DNA of 32,265 nt from a virus. Its lineage: Duplodnaviria; Caudoviricetes. The stretch covers positions 1 through 32,265 of IMG/VR virus record IMGVR_UViG_3300037484_000997; one strand, given 5' to 3'. Position 1 is the first letter of the stretch, and each line of letters opens with the position of its first letter. This document shows positions 5,714 through 21,676 of the stretch, piece after piece. The notes beneath the pieces are model-generated. The model saw nothing but the letters and a program-made list of their open reading frames with translations. It ran no database searches and had not been told where the DNA came from. The position numbers and the translations under genes are program-made.

Positions 5714-5929
5714 GGGGGGCGTGGGGGGTGTCCCCCCAACTTGTCGTAGAGGCCCAGGGACGCACAAACAGGATTGGGGGGCTACGGGGGGAACGTGGGC
5801 CGCCTCTCTCGAAGTCAATGGGCGTTGGCTGGCCTGGTTGCATCGGAGGAAATGACGATGCTGGAGCAAAGGGGCGGCCCTCCCCCCGTGTCGCCGTACT
5901 CGGCGACTTCGGCTCTTGCTCTGCTTCAC
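5714..5929. repeat. Structured G/C-run element, copy 1 (related to 11581-11750)
   Basis: Shared blocks GGGGGGCGTGGGGGG, TGTCCCCCCAACTTGT, GGCCCAGGGA, GGATTGGGGGGCT, GGCCTCCCCCCGTG and CTTCGGCTCTTGC. Confidence 0.8.
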
Positions 5930-6089: not shown

Positions 6090-6341
6090 CTAGAGGCCGG
6101 TGAATTTCGCTGGATCGTTCAGTTTCAATCCAGCGGCCCGCGCGAACCTGAGCATATATGCTGGAATGCTCTCAGCGGGCGCGTTCCACGTGTTGCCACG
6201 CTCCGCACCCTTTTTATTGATCCACTTCGCGGCGAACTTGACGTTCATCTTGCCGCGCCGTGCAGACGCATTCCCGCACGGATATGAGACAAATTCAGCA
6301 TATCGGAGCCTCCACCCATTTTTCAAGTCTTTGTCGAACAT
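6090..6341 (-). CDS. Small basic protein (83 aa), cassette gene 4
   Basis: AGGGAG RBS preceded by a conserved hairpin; TAG followed by the conserved repeat. Confidence 0.75.
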   Translation of the reverse strand: MFDKDLKNGWRLRYAEFVSYPCGNASARRGKMNVKFAAKWINKKGAERGNTWNAPAESIPAYMLRFARAAGLKLNDPAKFTGL

Positions 6342-6436
6342 CTCAATCTCCCTGGCCGATTCGGGTCGGCCTGCCTGATGAGCCGCCCGGCTGCGGATGC
6401 GCTGCGTGGGCGGCGGTGTGGGTGCGAGGGCGTGGG

Positions 6437-6640
6437 CTACTTCTTGGCGCGCACAGGCCTGCCGTTTTTGTAGGTTTGCAGGGACGTAACTTCATCGGGG
6501 GCTACGCCGACTACTTTCGCGGTCGTTCCTGCGGACAATCGCTTTGCCGCGACGCAGGCGCTGCCATATGATTGATATGGGATAGTTTTGCCTCCCACAT
6601 CAACCCTGTAGTGCTCATAGTTGGTCTTGAGATACTTCAT
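6437..6640 (-). CDS. Small basic protein (67 aa), cassette gene 3
   Basis: Same upstream hairpin/RBS and same downstream repeat. Confidence 0.75.
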   Translation of the reverse strand: MKYLKTNYEHYRVDVGGKTIPYQSYGSACVAAKRLSAGTTAKVVGVAPDEVTSLQTYKNGRPVRAKK

Positions 6641-6766
6641 TCTGCTTTCTCTCTGGCCGGTTGGTGTGGGTCGTCGGCCTGCCCGAATCTTTCACGGAGC
6701 CCCGGCCGGGTCAGCGGCCGGGGCGGATCGGAGAGCGGCGACGGGTCAGCGTCGCCGCGGGATCCA

Positions 6767-6985
6767 CTAGAGATTGAAGCCAGCGGCCTCCAGGATGGCG
6801 CGGGCCTTGGCTACATCGCGCTGCGCCATAGCGGCCTTGGCCTTTCGGTAGGCGTCCATCTCGGCTTGGCCGAGATTCTTGGCGCCTCCGCCTACGTTGC
6901 TGTCCCCGCCCTTGGGATCGTACAACGTGATCTTGATGCTGCCACCTTTGGGGGTGGTTCCCGTGATGGTTGGAAATTGAGACAT
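6767..6985 (-). CDS. Small protein (72 aa, MSQFPTITG...), cassette gene 2
   Basis: AGGGAGAAAGCAG-ATG start at 6985. Confidence 0.7.
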   Translation of the reverse strand: MSQFPTITGTTPKGGSIKITLYDPKGGDSNVGGGAKNLGQAEMDAYRKAKAAMAQRDVAKARAILEAAGFNL

Positions 6986-7082
6986 CTGCTTTCTCCCTTT
7001 TCGCTTTGGCCGAGTCTGCCGCTCAGCCCGACTTAATTCTAGCACATCCCCGCCGCACATTTGCACGGTGCGGGGGTGTGGG

Positions 7083-7217
7083 CTACTTGTCCTTGATTCC
7101 CGCTCGGAGTTTTTCTTGCTCCACGAATTTAGCAGCCTTTCTCTTTTCCTTTGGCGTGCGGACTACAGTTTCAGTCTTGCCAAAGATTCCCTTTCGTTTA
7201 TTCGTCTTGCGCTTCAT
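7083..7217 (-). CDS. Small Lys-rich protein (44 aa; not in the ORF track), cassette gene 1
   Basis: MKRKTNKRKGIFGKTETVVRTPKEKRKAAKFVEQEKLRAGIKDK*; same hairpin/RBS unit upstream. Confidence 0.7.
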   Translation of the reverse strand: MKRKTNKRKGIFGKTETVVRTPKEKRKAAKFVEQEKLRAGIKDK

Positions 7218-7266
7218 CTCTGTTTTCTCCCTGGCCGGTGGTGGCGGGTCGGCCTGCCCGATCCCT

Positions 7267-7333
7267 AGGACACCCTTAAGGGGTGTGTCGCATCTACTAC
7301 AAGTGTACCATGCGTTTTGGAAAATAATGTAAA
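7267..7333 (-). promoter_or_regulatory. Extended -10 promoter (TGGTACACT) plus downstream palindrome ACCCTTAAGGGGT
   Basis: TGnTACACT at 7310-7302 with AT-rich upstream DNA; the palindrome recurs at 11443-11455. Confidence 0.55.
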
Positions 7334-7342
7334 CAGGTTTGG

Positions 7343-8185
7343 CTACTGCGCGGGCTGCGGCCCGATCTTCTTCTCCAGCAGTGCCAACGCGGCGACAAAC
7401 CCGTCGCCGTTGGCGGCTTTGACCAACTCATTGATCTCCGGCGCTGTGATTTTGTGCGCCGACATCGCCTTGCTGGCGATCGCATAGAATGCGGTGCGGG
7501 CTGCGCCTGGCGTTGGCGCGGGCTTCTGCGCTTGCGCGCGCGGGTTCGGCCCGAAGTGCGCGTCGAGCTCGGACACTGGCGCGGCTGCTCGGCGCGCAAC
7601 TTCGATGGCGCAATTCCACTCATGCAGTCCGTCCTCTTTGGTGCATGTGCAGGCTGTTGGCGTGCGAGCTGGTATCGCCGCGGCTGACGGTGTGGACCGC
7701 ACCGACGTTTCCGGCGAGGGCTGCCGGCGCCCATCGCTGGTTGCGGTGGTGCTCCCTGGCGCGGGCTGGCTGGCTGCCACCGGCGCGGGGACTTTGAGCT
7801 TTTTTGCGCCGTTCGCGAGCTTGTCCACTGATCGATCGCGGAAGGCCAACAGGCGCGCGTATTTCACGTTGCCGTCCTTGACGTTGCCGCCGATGACGCA
7901 ATTGAACCAAATCGCGTCACTCTTCTCCCCGTCTTCGTCGTGCGCGGATCGGCGCACGTAGATTCGTCCCTGGTACTCCGCGCGGGTCGGCCCGTCCTTG
8001 TCGCTGGCCGTGACGGTCGCGCCGATGCTCTCCAAGATTTCGGCGGCCTTGGGCCAGTCGGACATCGGGCGGGTGAGGTTCGGCGCTGGCGCGATGACGC
8101 TGGCGATTGCCTCGGCTGCGGTTGCCATGCGGCTCGTCTCTTTCACGAGTGCGCCTAACAGGTCGAGTAAGGATTGATCGGTCAT
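7343..8185 (-). CDS. DdrB-like single-stranded DNA-binding/annealing protein (probable)
   Basis: SIGATVxxxDxDGPT...GRIYVRRS...AIWF...KYARLLAF pattern recalls DdrB-like phage SSBs; Pro/Ala linker and C-terminal helical domain; AGGAG RBS. Confidence 0.55.
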   Translation of the reverse strand: MTDQSLLDLLGALVKETSRMATAAEAIASVIAPAPNLTRPMSDWPKAAEILESIGATVTASDKDGPTRAEYQGRIYVRRSAHDEDGEKSDAIWFNCVIGGNVKDGNVKYARLLAFRDRSVDKLANGAKKLKVPAPVAASQPAPGSTTATSDGRRQPSPETSVRSTPSAAAIPARTPTACTCTKEDGLHEWNCAIEVARRAAAPVSELDAHFGPNPRAQAQKPAPTPGAARTAFYAIASKAMSAHKITAPEINELVKAANGDGFVAALALLEKKIGPQPAQ

Positions 8186-8427
8186 TTCGCTTTCTCCTGT
8201 TCCATGAGTCGGCGGACCTTGTCCGCCAGCGGGTTCGCCGCGTCTGTGACGCGGATCACGTAGGTGTAGGTGGCCGCGTCGCGCGCGATCACCTGGCCGA
8301 GATACCGCCAACCGCCAGGCCCGAACGCGCAGACCTCCACGCCCAAGATCGGCAGAGGATCACGGCCACTGCTGAGAGTGAGCGGGCTTGTGCTGTTGCC
8401 CTGGCGGTCGGTGACGGCGAGTCGCAT
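8182..8427 (-). CDS. Hypothetical protein (81 aa)
   Basis: Operon packing. Confidence 0.6.
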   Translation of the reverse strand: MRLAVTDRQGNSTSPLTLSSGRDPLPILGVEVCAFGPGGWRYLGQVIARDAATYTYVIRVTDAANPLADKVRRLMEQEKAK

Positions 8428-8428
8428 T

Positions 8429-8878
8429 CTAGCAGCCCTTGTCCATGATCGGCGACTTGTCAGTCGTCAACCCGTAGCAGCGCATCATCGCGGCCCACGT
8501 CGGGCGCTCGACATACGCCAGGTCTTGCATTGTCCGCCCCTGGCGGCGGCGGTCGCGCTGAATCTGCCCGGCGCTGCGCGTCGTCTGAATTTTACCCTCG
8601 ACCGCGTTCCAAAAGCAAGTGGCGGGCCGGATGTCGCCCAGCGCGGTTGGGGCGAGGTATTCGGGCTGATCGGATTCCTTCAGCCAGCACACAGCCACAT
8701 CGCGGCGCGGGCCGACAAGTGCGCCGGCCTGGCGGTAGCCGTGCGCTTCGAGCCAGGACACGGCCAACGTGGGCGAAGTGACGGGTTCGACCTGGTTGTC
8801 GTTGTAGCCGAATTTGTACCAGGTGTGGCCACTCTCGGCTGAAACGACGATGACGGCGCGGAGGTCTTTGGTTTTCAT
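8429..8878 (-). CDS. Hypothetical protein (about 149 aa, MKTKDLRA...)
   Basis: AGGGGG RBS before ATG 8878. Confidence 0.6.
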   Translation of the reverse strand: MKTKDLRAVIVVSAESGHTWYKFGYNDNQVEPVTSPTLAVSWLEAHGYRQAGALVGPRRDVAVCWLKESDQPEYLAPTALGDIRPATCFWNAVEGKIQTTRSAGQIQRDRRRQGRTMQDLAYVERPTWAAMMRCYGLTTDKSPIMDKGC

Positions 8879-8891
8879 GCTGCCCCCTACC

Positions 8892-9245
8892 CTACCATCC
8901 CAGCGATTGCCCGGCGTTCTCGACCGCCCGGCAAGCTGCTTCGTCTGTGAGTCCGTCATCATGCGCGCTGTCCACGCCGGGAATGTTGGTGCTGGCCATG
9001 AGCGCATCGAGCGCGCGCCCATGCTCCGGCGTGCCGGGTCGGGTGCGGGCGAAGGCGCGGAAGCGGAGCATGTATTCGTGCCGCGTCCGCTCGTGGTTGC
9101 ACTCGTCGGCGGTCGGCGCGTAGATCGTGGCGCCGTCTGAGGCTGTGCAGGTGAAAAGATCGGTGTCGAGGTCGAGTGTCGGTTCTTCGCTTGCGATGCG
9201 CCAATCGAGGCGCGTTGCGACTTGCGACTTGTTACTTGTCAACAT
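8892..9245 (-). CDS. Hypothetical protein (117 aa)
   Basis: AAGGGAG RBS. Confidence 0.65.
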   Translation of the reverse strand: MLTSNKSQVATRLDWRIASEEPTLDLDTDLFTCTASDGATIYAPTADECNHERTRHEYMLRFRAFARTRPGTPEHGRALDALMASTNIPGVDSAHDDGLTDEAACRAVENAGQSLGW

Positions 9246-9307
9246 GAGCTATCTCCCTTCTCATTTGGTGCGCTTCGCTCCGGTTGCAGCCGGCGCGGGC
9301 GCGATGA

Positions 9308-9514
9308 TCAACTTTTGGCGGGTAATTCGCTTGGGTAGTACGCTTGCTTGTGCGTCTCCTGGTGCCCGTCTTCCCATGTGTGCGTCGCGTCCACGATGAG
9401 TTGCACACCTAGGCGGCGGTTGGTGCGGTATCCGCGCACGATGCACTTTTGCCCAAAGCGGTCCGTAAATTCTGTCCCCACTGGGTACAGTCGTTTTAGT
9501 TCGTCCTTGCCCAT
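9308..9514 (-). CDS. Hypothetical protein (68 aa, MGKDELKR...)
   Basis: Natural composition; start directly after the upstream stop. Confidence 0.6.
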   Translation of the reverse strand: MGKDELKRLYPVGTEFTDRFGQKCIVRGYRTNRRLGVQLIVDATHTWEDGHQETHKQAYYPSELPAKS

Positions 9515-9516
9515 TC

Positions 9517-9729
9517 CTACCCCCACACACACAAAGTATCCGGCTCGTGCCCCACGCCCCCGCGCGCGCCGTTGCTGGCCAGCCGCCAACAAGCGGGGCA
9601 AACCTCGCGCGGATCGAGCAGGCGCGCCAGCTCCTGCGCGGCCTGGTGGAGATCCCGCCCCGTCAGGGCCGACACGGGCGACGCGGAGAGCAACGCAAGT
9701 GAGATTTGAACGCAAGGATCGCTGACCAT
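9517..9729 (-). CDS. Hypothetical CxxC protein (70 aa)
   Basis: GAGGT RBS; CPAC motif. Confidence 0.55.
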   Translation of the reverse strand: MVSDPCVQISLALLSASPVSALTGRDLHQAAQELARLLDPREVCPACWRLASNGARGGVGHEPDTLCVWG

Positions 9730-9935
9730 TGCAACCTACCTCTTACTTTCTCCGCTCCTCAAGCCGCGGAGAACAATCAGGCCACACACAGCACAACGGG
9801 GCGAGGAGTGGGAGGGGCGGCGGGCCGAATGCCGACCAACACGGCCAGTGGATCGGCGCTCTCGAAGTCCAAGCGCCTGCCCGCTGCCCCTCCCCGACGA
9901 ACCCCGCACCGCACCACCACACACGGCAACCCCCA

Positions 9936-10220
9936 CTAGAACAAGCGCGCCTGCACCGGCGCAGCGGCCACCGGCGCAACCGAACGGCCCGACGCGGCCA
10001 CAACCCGGAGCGCCGCCGCACGGCGCGCCGACAGGAACGGCGCGCGGCCAGCAGCGGCGCGGGCCAGCAGAGCGCGGGCCAGGCCGGGCCGGACACGGGC
10101 AAGGGCAGCCGCGTGCACGGCGCAGCCGGAGCACGCCGACGCGACAGGCCGCCCGGCAGCGAGGACCGCCGCCAGGGCAGCACAACGAGCGCAGGGACCG
10201 GAGACGGACCCACCAGCCAT
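9936..10220 (-). CDS. Adenine-depleted ORF 2 (94 aa; CxxC...CxxCxxH; ends QARLF)
   Basis: ATG overlaps the TAA of ORF 1 (TAATG); the only A's are in ATG, one His, one Gln and TAG. Confidence 0.6.
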   Translation of the reverse strand: MAGGSVSGPCARCAALAAVLAAGRPVASACSGCAVHAAALARVRPGLARALLARAAAGRAPFLSARRAAALRVVAASGRSVAPVAAAPVQARLF

Positions 10221-10543
10221 TAGCCCATCCACCCGACGCAGACGCGCCCAGCCCAGCGGCCACCGACGCGGCCAAACCAGGAGGCCAAGCCGACCGCGGA
10301 AAACGCAGGCGACAGAACGACAAGCCCGAACGCGAGCCCACCACCGGAGGCGGGGAAGCGGACGAACCCAGCGCGCAGGCCCAGCCACCGGGCCAAGCGC
10401 CGAGCCGCAGCCAGCGCCGCGAAGCGGCCACGGCCACCGCAAGGCACGCCGCAGAACAAAACGCCGCGCGCGGCAGGCCGCACGGACAGGCCGACCGAAC
10501 CAAGACCACGAACCGCAGACCAGAACGAAACGAAAGCAGACAC
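10220..10543 (-). CDS. Adenine-depleted ORF 1 (107 aa, GTG start, VSAFVSFWSAVRG...)
   Basis: A-free GGGGG SD-like sequence before GTG; downstream of a spaced sigma70-type promoter; TAA coupled to the next ATG. Confidence 0.55.
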   Translation of the reverse strand: MSAFVSFWSAVRGLGSVGLSVRPAARGVLFCGVPCGGRGRFAALAAARRLARWLGLRAGFVRFPASGGGLAFGLVVLSPAFSAVGLASWFGRVGGRWAGRVCVGWMG

Positions 10544-10591
10544 GGCAACCCCCAGAGAGAGCGACCGCCACCCGGCCGCCGAAGCAAGCAC

Positions 10592-10620
10592 AGTGTACCA
10601 CAGCCACGACAGAAAAGCAA
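10592..10620 (-). promoter_or_regulatory. Sigma70-type promoter for the A-depleted operon
   Basis: TTGCTT-N17-TACACT with extended TG; same -10 as the promoters at 7302 and 16282. Confidence 0.7.
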
Positions 10621-11580
10621 GAGGGAAAACACCCAAACCCGCATGAGGGAAAACACCCACGACAGAAAAGCAAGGCGGCGCGGAGGGCCGGCGCACCGCC
10701 GGGCCCGGCGAGGGCGGACCGGAGAGCGGCGCAGCCACCACCGCCGGAAACGGCGAGACACCCCAGCGCACCCGCCGCCGGAGGGCGACCCCACCCGCAG
10801 CGGCGACACCCCCCTTTAAGTAATTTCCTCTGGCTACGCGCTTGCGCATGTGCTGCGCGTGCGGGGCGATGCGTGCGCGTAGCCTCTTGCTGGAGAGAAG
10901 ATTGCTGCCCCGGGGTTTTCCGAAGAGGACGGGGGGTTCGGGGGGCAGAGCGCCCCCGCCCGCTGGCGATCTTGGCCGAAGCGGGTCCGCCGCAGAAGTT
11001 GCGCGGGGGATGGGGGGACGGGGGGGGCGAGCCCCCCCAGCGGGGGGTTTCGGGGGGCAGAGCCCCCCGTTTCTCTCGATGGAATGTGTGCCACGCTGTT
11101 CTACCGCGCCTCGCAGACCGCAGGGTGTGTTCTTCGGCTCTTGCTCTGCTTCACGTCACGCCGCAAGGTTAGGATAGGCGCCCCGCTGGCCGCCTTCCCG
11201 TCGCTGGTTGGGTTGACTCGATGGGTTGGCCGTGGCTATAAACATGTTTTTGTGCGCTACGGACAATCCAGGGAGGACGAAACAAGAAATGACGCGGCGA
11301 ATAGGACGCTGGGGTGAGGTTGTGGCTTTCGGCGAACGGCTAGCCTTCATCAAGAAAAAGAGGCTTGTGTATCCTCTCTCACACATTTTTCCCCAGAAAC
11401 AATCCCGTCGGCATAGCCCGCACTTCTGGCTGTCCCCAGGATACCCTTAAGGGGTATGCCTACGGGACAAATGCCCCGGCTGCTGCAAAGGCTTGGCTAC
11501 GCGCGCTCTTGATCTATGTCCCCGGGAAGTCCACACACCTGGGAACTCCCAGGTGCATGGGGTGCGCGCGTGGCCTCTTT

Positions 11581-11750
11581 GGGGGGCGTGGGGGGGGGTG
11601 TCCCCCCAACTTGTAGCAGTGGCCCAGGGATGCATATAAAGGATTGGGGGGCTTCGGGGGGAATGTGGCCCGCTGCGACGGTAATCCGGCGCGTTCTGCG
11701 GGCCTCCCCCCGTGCGGTTGCGGTACTCCGTCAACCGCTTCGGCTCTTGC
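11581..11750. repeat. Structured G/C-run element, copy 2
   Basis: Same conserved blocks as 5714-5929. Confidence 0.8.
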
Positions 11751-16382: not shown

Positions 16383-17051
16383 TCAATACAAGATGTGGTC
16401 GGCATATCTTCCCTCGATGTACTTGCGCCGGTCGGTGATCTGGTCTGTTTCAACCTCTACCCGGTCGCCGTCTCTCATGCGTCGGATCGCCAGCCCCTTC
16501 GCTTTGTAGCTCGGCAGTCCACGCTTGGCCGTGTCTTTCATGATGGCGTCAATGTACTCCGGCGTCATGTCCGGCAGGTGGGCGAGCTCGTCGGCGGTCT
16601 TGCCCATGATGTTGTGGCGGTGCAGGGCTGCCAGGGCTGATTGTACCTCTGGTTGCTCCAAAGTGAGGGTTTTTCCCTCACTTTGCTCTGCTTCTCCTTC
16701 TATAGGTGTGTCAGTGTTAAGATTAAGAAGAGTAGTAGTAGTAGATGCCAAAGTGAGGGTATTTCCCTCACTTTGTTCTGTCAACTCCATGGGCTGACGG
16801 GGCAACGAGAGGCCCGGTAACGGCAGTTGCCGGCCCTTGTCTGTCAGAAACCAGCGTTGGCCGCTGTGGGCCGCGTACCCGTCGCGCTCCAGGCCGTGAA
16901 GATGCTTGTTGGTCGTCCCCAGGTCCATCGGGATTTCGGCGGCGATGTCGGTGGCCGTGGGCGCGGGCGTGAAGGCGAAGAGGCAAAACAGGACGTGAAG
17001 GCGCTTGTTCGGGCAATCCCTGAGCACGCGCTTGACGGTTTGGTCAATCAT
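16383..17051 (-). CDS. Replication initiator-like protein with N-terminal winged HTH
   Basis: wHTH pattern (TATDIAAEI...TTNKHLHGLERDGY...WFLTDKG); internal palindromic repeats and AT-rich tract as in lambdoid O-type genes. Confidence 0.65.
   Translation of the reverse strand: MIDQTVKRVLRDCPNKRLHVLFCLFAFTPAPTATDIAAEIPMDLGTTNKHLHGLERDGYAAHSGQRWFLTDKGRQLPLPGLSLPRQPMELTEQSEGNTLTLASTTTTLLNLNTDTPIEGEAEQSEGKTLTLEQPEVQSALAALHRHNIMGKTADELAHLPDMTPEYIDAIMKDTAKRGLPSYKAKGLAIRRMRDGDRVEVETDQITDRRKYIEGRYADHILY
16659..16775. repeat. Two 27-bp palindromic iterons flanking an AT-rich spacer; candidate ori
   Basis: CAAAGTGAGGGTWTTTCCCTCACTTTG at 16659-16685 and 16749-16775. Confidence 0.7.
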
Positions 17052-17709
17052 GGCTCAGTCCTTTGATAAGCTGCTCCCCGATCCATTTTGTGAACAGCGG
17101 CGGGATCGCTTCCCTGATCTCGTCCCAGTCCATCCAGTCAATGCCCATGACGATTCTGGCTTCCTCGATCGAGGAGGCGACTCGCCCGGGTCGGTGATGG
17201 CGGTAGCTCACTCGTCGCCCGTCGGGTCTGGCGCCGTACACGCCGATGGTGTAATCCGCTGAGTAGTGACGGCACGGCGGAGCCATGAGAAGGATGCTGC
17301 TCTCAAAGTGCCGGTGGCGCGCCAAGTGGGGCAGGCCGAGAGAGACGCCGCACAGGATGATTTGAGTCAGGAGGGGAGAGTTTTTCACGTTCTCTATGAT
17401 CCACGGCTTGCCGGTCTGCTCGAGCGCTCGCCGAGTTGCGTCGATCAGGTCGGGGTATTCCGTACTGATCGAGCCGAAACGGGCGATGGTGACATTGCGC
17501 ATTCCGGTGTAGTGCTGGCACGGCGGCGATGCGTGCACCACGTCAAACTCTCTCCCGTGCGCCGCGCAGAACTCTAGCGCGTCGGCCAGGTGAAACTCAA
17601 ACGGGTAGTGCGGCTGCGGGCGATTGTCCACGCCCGTCACGTCGAACCCCGCCAGGTGGTAGCCCATGCCTGCGCCGCCTGCCCCACAAAAGAGGTCGAG
17701 GAGTTTCAT
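17044..17709 (-). CDS. DNA cytosine-C5 methyltransferase (short phage type)
   Basis: DLFCGAGG (motif I), HASPPCQ (motif IV), IENV (motif VI). Confidence 0.9.
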   Translation of the reverse strand: MKLLDLFCGAGGAGMGYHLAGFDVTGVDNRPQPHYPFEFHLADALEFCAAHGREFDVVHASPPCQHYTGMRNVTIARFGSISTEYPDLIDATRRALEQTGKPWIIENVKNSPLLTQIILCGVSLGLPHLARHRHFESSILLMAPPCRHYSADYTIGVYGARPDGRRVSYRHHRPGRVASSIEEARIVMGIDWMDWDEIREAIPPLFTKWIGEQLIKGLSHD

Positions 17710-20857: not shown

Positions 20858-20886
20858 TTGACATCCTCGCCGTTTCGTGCGATGAT
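20858..20886 (+). promoter_or_regulatory. Promoter of the adenine MTase
   Basis: TTGACA-N17-GATGAT with extended TG. Confidence 0.5.
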
Positions 20887-20929
20887 TGACGTCGAAGGAT
20901 CTCGAATCGTCACAACTAGCGAGGACACC

Positions 20930-21676
20930 ATGAGCACCTACCCAGGCGGCAAGTCCGGCGCGGGCGTCTATCAAAAGCTGATCTGCCAGATGCCTCCCCA
21001 CTCGACCTACATTGAGCCTTTCTTGGGCGGCGGGGCGGTCATGCGCTTGAAGCGCCCAGCGCGGTCGAGCATCGGCATTGATGCCGATGCCGACGTGCTC
21101 ACCGCCTTCGCGCAGCGTGGCGATGCGGTCCCGAATCTGCAATTGATCCACGGCGACGCCCTGGCCTGGCTGGCGGATGGGGACCTTCCCCGTGATGCCC
21201 TTGTCTACTGTGACCCTCCCTACCTTCTCTCGACTCGCCGTCAGCATCGCGCTATTTACCGATACGAGCTGTGCGACGCGGACCACGTGCGCCTGCTGGA
21301 CATCCTGCGCGGCCTGCACTGCATGGTGATGATCTCGGGCTATTACTCGGACCTGTACGCCTCCGCGCTTTCCGGTTGGCGCTCGATCTCGTTCTCGGCC
21401 CGCACGCGGGGCGGGAGCATGGCGACGGAATTTGTCTGGATGAACTACCCAGAGCCGCTTGAACTCCACGACTACCGTTACCTCGGTTGCGACTTTCGTG
21501 AGCGCGAGCGCATCAAGCGCAAGAAAGCGCGCTGGTCGGCCCGCCTGGCCCGCATGGATGCGTTGGAACGTCACGCGATGATGGCGGCCTTGGCTGAGCT
21601 ACGATCGGGCCTCGCCAGTTCCGATGGTGCTGCAGCCTCGTCGGTTCCGGTGGTGTCGGCTGCCGCTATTGCTTGA
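20930..21676 (+). CDS. Dam-like (D12 class) N6-adenine DNA methyltransferase
   Basis: YPGGKSG, YIEPFLGGGAV and YCDPPY motifs; GAGGA RBS before ATG 20930. Confidence 0.92.
   Translation: MSTYPGGKSGAGVYQKLICQMPPHSTYIEPFLGGGAVMRLKRPARSSIGIDADADVLTAFAQRGDAVPNLQLIHGDALAWLADGDLPRDALVYCDPPYLLSTRRQHRAIYRYELCDADHVRLLDILRGLHCMVMISGYYSDLYASALSGWRSISFSARTRGGSMATEFVWMNYPEPLELHDYRYLGCDFRERERIKRKKARWSARLARMDALERHAMMAALAELRSGLASSDGAAASSVPVVSAAAIA

Follow-up and report, generated by a model that had tools for sequence, protein, structure and literature searches.

A nearly adenine-free operon in a temperate phage belongs to a widespread class of three-letter operons

The window, i.e., the entire stretch of 32,265 nt of viral DNA that was analyzed, is a whole circular contig with a 137-nt terminal repeat, and the genome consists of this contig alone. 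Integrase, terminase, portal, capsid and tail genes are present, and the element is a complete 32-kb temperate phage of the tailed, dsDNA type. Also annotated are a C5 cytosine methylase (17044–17709, minus strand) and a D12-class adenine methylase (20858–21676, plus strand). A REP-like 26-nt palindromic repeat occurs in six copies within coding regions (at 1237, 4627, 12973, 24784, 29014 and 29074). Comparison of the phage DNA with annotated phages gave no DNA match. Relatives of the phage genes suggest a host among the Chloroflexota; for instance, the DdrB-like gene of the phage is 43% identical to a gene that, in an Anaerolineae bin, adjoins an A-free one.

Between 9892 and 10814, the minus strand is almost devoid of adenine. 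A base count of the plus strand gave nine T's in 923 nt, at positions 9937, 9952, 10114, 10220, 10221, 10228, 10594, 10596 and 10644, and the longest T-free stretch, which is A-free on the minus strand, spans 365 nt (10229–10593); both figures agree with those of a previous sequence-only reading of this DNA. Outside the tract, the longest stretch in the whole window without any one base is 67 nt. The scarcity of T corresponds to a binomial log10 P of −52, taken at the lower (A) background rate of the window. The dinucleotide GA occurs once in the tract on the minus strand, compared to ≈71 times per kb in the remainder of that strand. The surviving A's are located at the start, the stops and the −10 box. 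The sequence-only reading had claimed that eight of the nine are obligatory, and their placement agrees with this, except that the A at 10228 is not clearly required for the proposed Met: it lies within GGTGGA, 8 nt 5′ of the ORF2 start, and may be part of an ORF2 ribosome site. Since A-free and T-free strands cannot hold stop codons, all six frames are nearly stop-free and open frames are no evidence here; coding was therefore judged from homologues.

The operon is preceded by a candidate σ70 promoter (10592–10620, minus strand) with TTGCTT (10620–10615), a 17-nt spacer and TACACT (10597–10592), including an extended TG (TGG before the −10). It scores below the threshold of the promoter scan, and the call rests on the sequence. 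The 9-mer TGGTACACT of this promoter also stands before the next gene array, at 7310. An A-free ribosome site, GGGGG (10553–10549), and a GTG start (10543) follow (10541–10554, minus strand), a signature of the strict members of the class described below. ORF1 (107 aa; 10220–10543) and ORF2 (94 aa; 9936–10220), both on the minus strand, are coupled by a TAATG overlap. The promoter elements, GGGGG, GTG and TAATG, as well as the CxxCxxH motif, the QARLF terminus and the TAG stop, were all found where the sequence-only reading had placed them, and neither translation contains K, N, D, E, Y, I or T, as that reading had stated. It had missed that the 14-nt ribosome site and its GTG recur unchanged directly after the ORF2 stop (9935–9922). 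This second copy stands ahead of ORF3 (62 aa; 9736–9935, minus strand), in which 11 A-free codons are followed by ordinary composition; ORF3 probably represents what is left of a third A-free gene.

Small accessory genes form an array that begins with the tract and lies between the genes for replication and those for packaging. The downstream part of this array (6093–9729, minus strand) is made up of small genes of ordinary composition with repeated leaders, including a gene for the DdrB-like ssDNA-binding protein (7343–8311, minus strand; E = 3e-5, just under the cut-off). DdrB-like genes also come after A-free SLOG genes in six loci; the one in the window found no loci when used as a query. 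Genes adjoining the A-free operon have A-rich ribosome sites and ATG starts. Between 6034 and 7290 (minus strand), each small gene has a repeated leader before it and a repeated 59-nt terminator-like unit after it, in a cassette-like array. The entire 5.9-kb accessory block is flanked by a 90-nt direct repeat (84%; 5714–5803 and 11584–11673), part of which is conserved in L002, the locus with the most closely related terminase.

Upstream of the −10 box, the A-free DNA continues for ≈220 nt (10598–10814, minus strand) and contains two direct repeats, starting at 10673 and 10620, the second of which includes the −35 candidate. Similar A-free segments, reaching 97–254 nt upstream, were found in five other loci (L048, L107, L113, L115 and L119). 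Beyond it lies a hairpin-rich region (10830–11151) with an inverted repeat (≈10833–10885), three GGGG-loop-CCCC hairpins (10931–11068) and a repeat denoted D9 (11127–11151), for which pairing with the promoter repeats is predicted on the plus strand. D9 is an A-free 25-mer with five plus-strand copies (5902, 11127, 11759, 11815 and 11922); the copies resemble the promoter repeats inverted and are candidates for an operator, iteron or pairing element. A palindromic CCCTTAAGGG element follows the promoter candidate of 7310 (at 7275) and recurs at 11446, and a half-copy at 10820 marks the start of the A-free tract. In a fold-back of the kind described for Frpo, the −35 repeats of the window pair in the fold without a good −10 in register. 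No Rfam family was found over the A-free module of the window, and upstream of eight class loci Rfam gave nothing but one unrelated riboswitch, a c-di-GMP-I-GGC riboswitch in L040 (218–299). The hairpin motif of the window, used as a query, found no loci.

True tracts were found in only two of 50 terminase-related loci (L010 and L012), many of which are too short; a membrane-protein gene with 15 A's in 437 nt (L009/L123) was left out of this count. In L012, A-containing operator islands (8724–8757 and 7880–7930; repeated TGTCATAA), common to two promoters, interrupt and trail the tract. The A-free gene of L012 encodes a 193-aa protein (P0002) that requires only two A's and has 408 relatives. 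Its AlphaFold2 model (pLDDT 89.7) matches DprA and other SLOG folds with Z scores of 9–11 and has a Rossmannoid SLOG fold with a G.D nucleotide loop. The commonest protein of the class thus shares its fold with the SLOG superfamily (DprA/Smf, LOG, MoCo carrier and ThsA-SLOG), but unlike known members it is encoded almost wholly in A-free codons. Weak matches to PF02481 were seen in 21 of 75 members of the A-free family, and 43 of the 120 SLOG relatives among the matches listed have at most two A-requiring residues.

The P0002 alignment led to 92 genome loci, of which the best 80 were used, and to 15 viral loci. The genome loci span Cyanobacteria, Chloroflexota, Acidobacteria, Competibacteraceae, Bacteroidota and others, and 11 of the 15 viral loci have a protein in common with the window phage. 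A makes up no more than 12% of the sense strand of the matching gene in all 95 loci. The A content averages 2.6% across 88 distinct SLOG genes (the 95 minus seven duplicate or incomplete ones), compared to 27.6% in background genes filtered for ordinary amino acid content and 14–35% in whole loci. All class members were reached via A-free queries, and relatives of ordinary composition may be missed; third codon positions, which are unconstrained by the search, are still depleted of A. In 21 independent SLOG pairs, single changes were synonymous in 858 cases and non-synonymous in 164, and the A-free SLOG genes evolve under protein-level selection. The SLOG protein was not found in plasmid or phage collections searched with the low-complexity filter on. 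Genes for integrases, DdrB-like proteins, Erf, ArdA, DUF4326, DnaJ-like and coupling proteins neighbor the class genes.

A second class gene, family R, encodes a small β-α-β protein and is usually directly upstream of the SLOG gene. It is represented by 34 locus copies, 15 of which have no A in frame, and by 97 more proteins; the Atlas gave no match. Two loci carry a fusion of family R with the A-free SLOG gene (L093, 9536–10393; L098, 9614–10471). In L115, an ORF1-like domain is fused to family R.

The window ORFs are tied to this class with moderate confidence, as judged from sequence comparison. ORF1 resembles the first genes of A-free phage operons in L115, L117 and L119, with a score of 16.3 bits in its own frame (shuffle maximum 7.4, n = 1000) that is optimistic because the seeds were picked by eye. 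Its likeness to the family R profile is weak, with 0 of 1000 shuffles scoring higher without composition correction and 26 of 1000 with it, and an hhalign value of 4%. ORF1 has no Pfam, PHROG or PADLOC match (PADLOC gave none for 26 proteins), and no relatives were found by direct protein search, in the Atlas or in the viral loci. One apparent viral-locus relative (L001) was judged spurious. An AlphaFold2 model of ORF1, based on the family R alignment, which is probably not that of its nearest family, had a pLDDT of 62 and no fold match above background.

In ORF2, the CxxC...CxxCxxH motif is likely a zinc site, and the C-terminal QARLF resembles the β-clamp binding motif, QL[SD]LF. The sole ORF2 relative found, P0001, is 78% identical; it keeps the reading frame, all four Cys and the His, although the latter costs an A, and its changes are mostly conservative. 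It ends in QPRLL, and similar, QxxLF-like tails, which are a further difference from known SLOG proteins, occur in 40 of the 120 SLOG relatives listed. Because P0001 comes from a separate contig, an assembly artefact is unlikely. No relatives of ORF2 were found in the viral loci, and none of P0001 in metagenome contigs. The N-terminal half of ORF2 shows a weak likeness to the SLOG profile (8.4 bits, exceeded by none of 300 shuffles; hhalign probability 3.7%) and ORF2 has no Asp; P0001 scored 0.2 bits, with 24 of 300 shuffles higher. ORF2 would be at most a truncated, zinc-motif derivative of SLOG. The reading frames, for which the sequence-only reading had proposed a homologue check, are supported by P0001 and by the in-frame match of ORF1. 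With coupled ORFs nearly A-free in the sense strand, a G-only ribosome site, a GTG start and a TAG stop, the tract carries the signature of the class, and it is a real, non-artefactual member of a widespread class of A-free operons.

Across the class, the A-free strand tracks the sense of the gene, not the strand of the element. Where an element has a further tract on its other strand, this too encodes an A-free gene among the matches listed (5 of the 34 family R genes), and the phage tracts have the same orientation as terL in four loci and the window, and the opposite one in two. The pressure is at the nucleotide level. At codon joints, class genes have A after G in 27 of 6314 cases, after C in 173 of 5194 and after T in 107 of 5621, whereas the corresponding background frequencies are 0.27, 0.29 and 0.23. 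GA is avoided over codon joints with a z of −10 in a synonymous shuffle that keeps protein and codon usage fixed, and the A ratio at four-fold sites is 0.03 after G compared to 0.13–0.33 after C. GA depletion thus exceeds that of other A contexts at the level of the class, to which these statistics apply, since the window ORFs contain too few A's for context. TA is also depleted (192 vs. 326), while AA is not avoided, nor is ANA (61 vs. 67.6), and the shortage of GANA is no more than roughly that of GA. Stops are TAG in 55, TGA in 20 and TAA in 13 cases (vs. 106, 166 and 219), with TAG favored over TGA. The rarest codons are those for K, N and E, and the bases that replace A follow host GC (ρ = −0.88).

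The borders of the depletion are linked to the genes. In strict loci, the leader, ribosome site and terminator are A-free and the ribosome sites are G-only; GTG starts were found in 23 of 30 strict genes and 10 of 38 relaxed ones. In 40 strict genes, the depletion fades by ≈50 nt past the stop, often at the U-run of the terminator. The 5′ ends differ between loci. In 25 of 68 cases the tract is limited to the CDS and opens at the start codon; here A accounts for 26% of the 5′ flank but 4% of the gene, and the flank is only slightly short of GA (32 vs. 42.5). The earlier proposal that selection acts against A in an expressed unit, with A kept where needed, holds for the class, and we infer the same for the window operon.

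An attack directed at mRNA adenines is consistent with the GA hierarchy, the purging of the ribosome site and borders that follow the genes. We tentatively favor, at a little short of an even chance, a reading in which selection has purged the operon mRNA of A so that it would stay translatable under a GA-preferring RNA attack by the host. The operon would be transcribed as an accessory, early-acting counter-defence unit. A host effector would damage RNA at adenines, worst at GA, and the A-free message would still be translated into products that blunt that defence; the SLOG member, judging from its fold, would bind or hydrolyze an adenine-nucleotide adduct or signal. The attacker might be a CmdT-like mRNA ADP-ribosyltransferase, a Csx1-like adenosine-directed RNase, or several agents. 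Among the four candidate explanations of the sequence-only reading, immunity to A-specific RNases or anticodon nucleases fits best when taken as adenine-directed RNA attack with a GA hierarchy instead of an anticodon effect.

In the part of the CmdTAC report that bears on this point (PMC11618068), CmdT modifies N6 of A in ssRNA GA, thereby blocking translation, and the authors point to the GA of Shine-Dalgarno sites; its target is thus what the class avoids most. However, CmdT is a host weapon outside the A-free operon, and it alone cannot explain the loss of A after C or T, because a G-free oligo was unmodified and AA, AG and GG were only faintly modified (same section of PMC11618068). Csx1 is described as cutting after every adenosine, and no GA bias is reported in the relevant part of that paper (PMC4712672). 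No attacker was found in the phage. Cas10 was present in 23 of the 50 carriers listed (50 of 80 loci), and within one family of incomplete genomes it was found in 4 of 7 carriers and 32 of 64 non-carriers, i.e., without enrichment. An mRNA from the candidate promoter also leaves unexplained the A-free DNA upstream of its −10, where there is no clear further −10. The depletion of TA, and a GA deficit that is only slight in the flanks of the CDS-limited loci, also speak against this reading. Our confidence is limited because neither CmdT nor Csx1 yields both total loss and GA bias, no effector is tied to the carriers, and these upstream segments are not accounted for.

The upstream segments are better accommodated if the template strand is exposed as ssDNA, during entry or at an ssDNA promoter, and is T-free in order to escape a TC-preferring, thymine-directed agent, which we consider unlikely but the most serious alternative. 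In line with this, the mini-hairpin motif GCGNAGC is enriched on the template strand upstream of class tracts (59 vs. 19.6 ± 5), which points to an ssDNA role; part of the text of PMC13037366 describes it as a very stable DNA mini-hairpin. The plus strand of the window between 10600 and 11200 folds better than shuffled sequences (z = −3.45, 20 shuffles). SSB-like, ArdA, Erf and coupling-protein neighbors recall the leading-region anti-defence islands with Frpo, with which SSB-like, ArdA and methylase neighbors and hairpin-rich upstream DNA are held in common, whereas the portion of that report considered here describes no A-free genes (PMC11541004), and the present case is a phage, with tracts on both strands. 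Inverted repeats with a CAAGGG...CCCTTG core, some with TTGACA in the stem, lie upstream of tracts in nine loci (L044, L051, L054, L061, L082, L095, L096, L098 and L114) and are Frpo-like candidates. Nevertheless, long inverted repeats were found upstream in only 19 of 73 class loci, compared to 15% of controls, and none was found upstream of the tract in the window. Tracts on both strands of one element, A-rich 5′ flanks in 25 of 68 tracts and the tailed dsDNA nature of the phage also argue against exposure as ssDNA. TT is the main UV dimer, and its sense-strand counterpart AA is not avoided. Evasion of DarT, as suggested by the sequence-only reading, is weakened in the same way: DarT2 needs TNTC/TCTN according to a part of PMC12945103, and ANA (TNT in the template) is not avoided, with GANA low only to the extent of GA.

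Loss of A in every context, extending through terminators and upstream DNA, would also be expected if the unit had to be transcribed or copied while a defence depletes ATP or dATP. This explanation, which had likewise been put forward from the sequence, is weakened by the A-rich flanks of the 25 CDS-limited tracts and gives no reason for the GA hierarchy; moreover, translation itself requires ATP. We regard it as improbable.

Of similarly low probability is an escape at the codon level, either from anticodon nucleases or from the loss of tRNAs with U-containing anticodons. Many tracts do begin at the start codon, and K, N and E codons are the rarest, but GA is avoided over codon joints even when protein and codon usage are kept constant, and in strict loci the A-free sequence includes leader, ribosome site and terminator. 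GCG and GTG, which are read by U34 tRNAs in most bacteria, are plentiful in the tract.

It is very unlikely that the tract in the window is non-coding or a decaying remnant with ORFs that are by-products of stop-free DNA. The lack of a family, structure or Atlas match and the truncated appearance of ORF3 would agree with decay, but P0001 keeps the frame, the Cys and His residues and mostly conservative changes, the match between ORF1 and class genes is in frame, and A's remain at the start, stops and −10.

Diversity-generating retroelements (DGRs) share the adenine-specific loss on the sense strand, and saturation of the locus by directed A-to-N mutagenesis from a DGR-like RT in trans, with purifying selection holding the remaining A's, would explain both the context-wide loss and replacements that track host GC, as random replacement would. 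Against this, here there is no RT and no template/variable repeat pair, and whole genes with their signals are affected. No RT motif was found in phage ORFs of at least 200 aa, and a Pfam scan of 33 ORFs gave no RT; nor did the complete phage contain a template repeat differing at adenines, a search that leaves a host-genome template possible. Only weak self-matches (64–70% identity) were seen, in 5 of 72 loci, and the same sharp gene-linked borders recur in unrelated elements of many phyla. This candidate of the sequence-only reading is therefore highly improbable.

Universal avoidance of restriction sites needing A on both strands is the least probable explanation. On this view, the strand without A must be the sense one because codons without T could not specify a folded protein. 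An A-free strand indeed holds no even palindrome containing A/T, and some GC palindromes are low in SLOG genes (GGNCC, z −10; CYCGRG, z −7). However, GGCC (18), CCGG (10) and GCGC (20) are abundant and not depleted in ORF1 and ORF2, GATC is near expectation (29 vs. 33) with a conserved Asp forming it in 16 of 84 genes, and shielding 0.9 kb would not rescue the 32 kb of the whole genome.

mRNAs without ACA survive MazF in engineered systems. Among natural precedents, the avoidance of target motifs by invaders (depletion of restriction sites and palindromes; bioRxiv 10.1101/2025.04.03.647016, in part) likewise removes the attacker's target from the sequence and keeps protein function, whereas the A-free operon dispenses with a whole base all the way from its promoter to its stop and thereby forgoes seven to nine amino acids; the word "adenine" does not occur in the portion of that text considered here. 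Leading regions, motif depletion and ADP-ribose reversal are treated in PMC11541004, 10.1101/2025.04.03.647016, PMC5512222 and PMC11833690, the available parts of which contain no A-free genes. The literature searched, mainly open-access main texts without supplements, in which families could be listed unnamed, holds no description of such genes, and A-free three-letter operons are, as far as searched, an undescribed class.

Dropping an entire base yet encoding well-folded proteins that are under purifying selection implies a selection strong enough to forgo Lys, Glu, Asn, Tyr, Ile and Thr. It is conceivable, although we would give it only about half the weight of its negation, that phages and integrative elements of many phyla carry natural three-letter operons that present no target to adenine-directed defences, and whose folded proteins of some eleven amino acids would serve as last-standing antidotes after the host shuts down ordinary messages. 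The SLOG enzyme would then remove the adenine adduct or signal, and the GA bias would predict a widespread host effector that is still to be identified. Should RNA be what is attacked, at its adenines, the class would be both the trace that a defence has left in genomes and a ready answer to that defence; a force acting on ssDNA or nucleotide pools instead would be equally unexplained. The class also provides natural examples of reduced-alphabet proteins and a rule by which expression could be designed to be toxin-proof.
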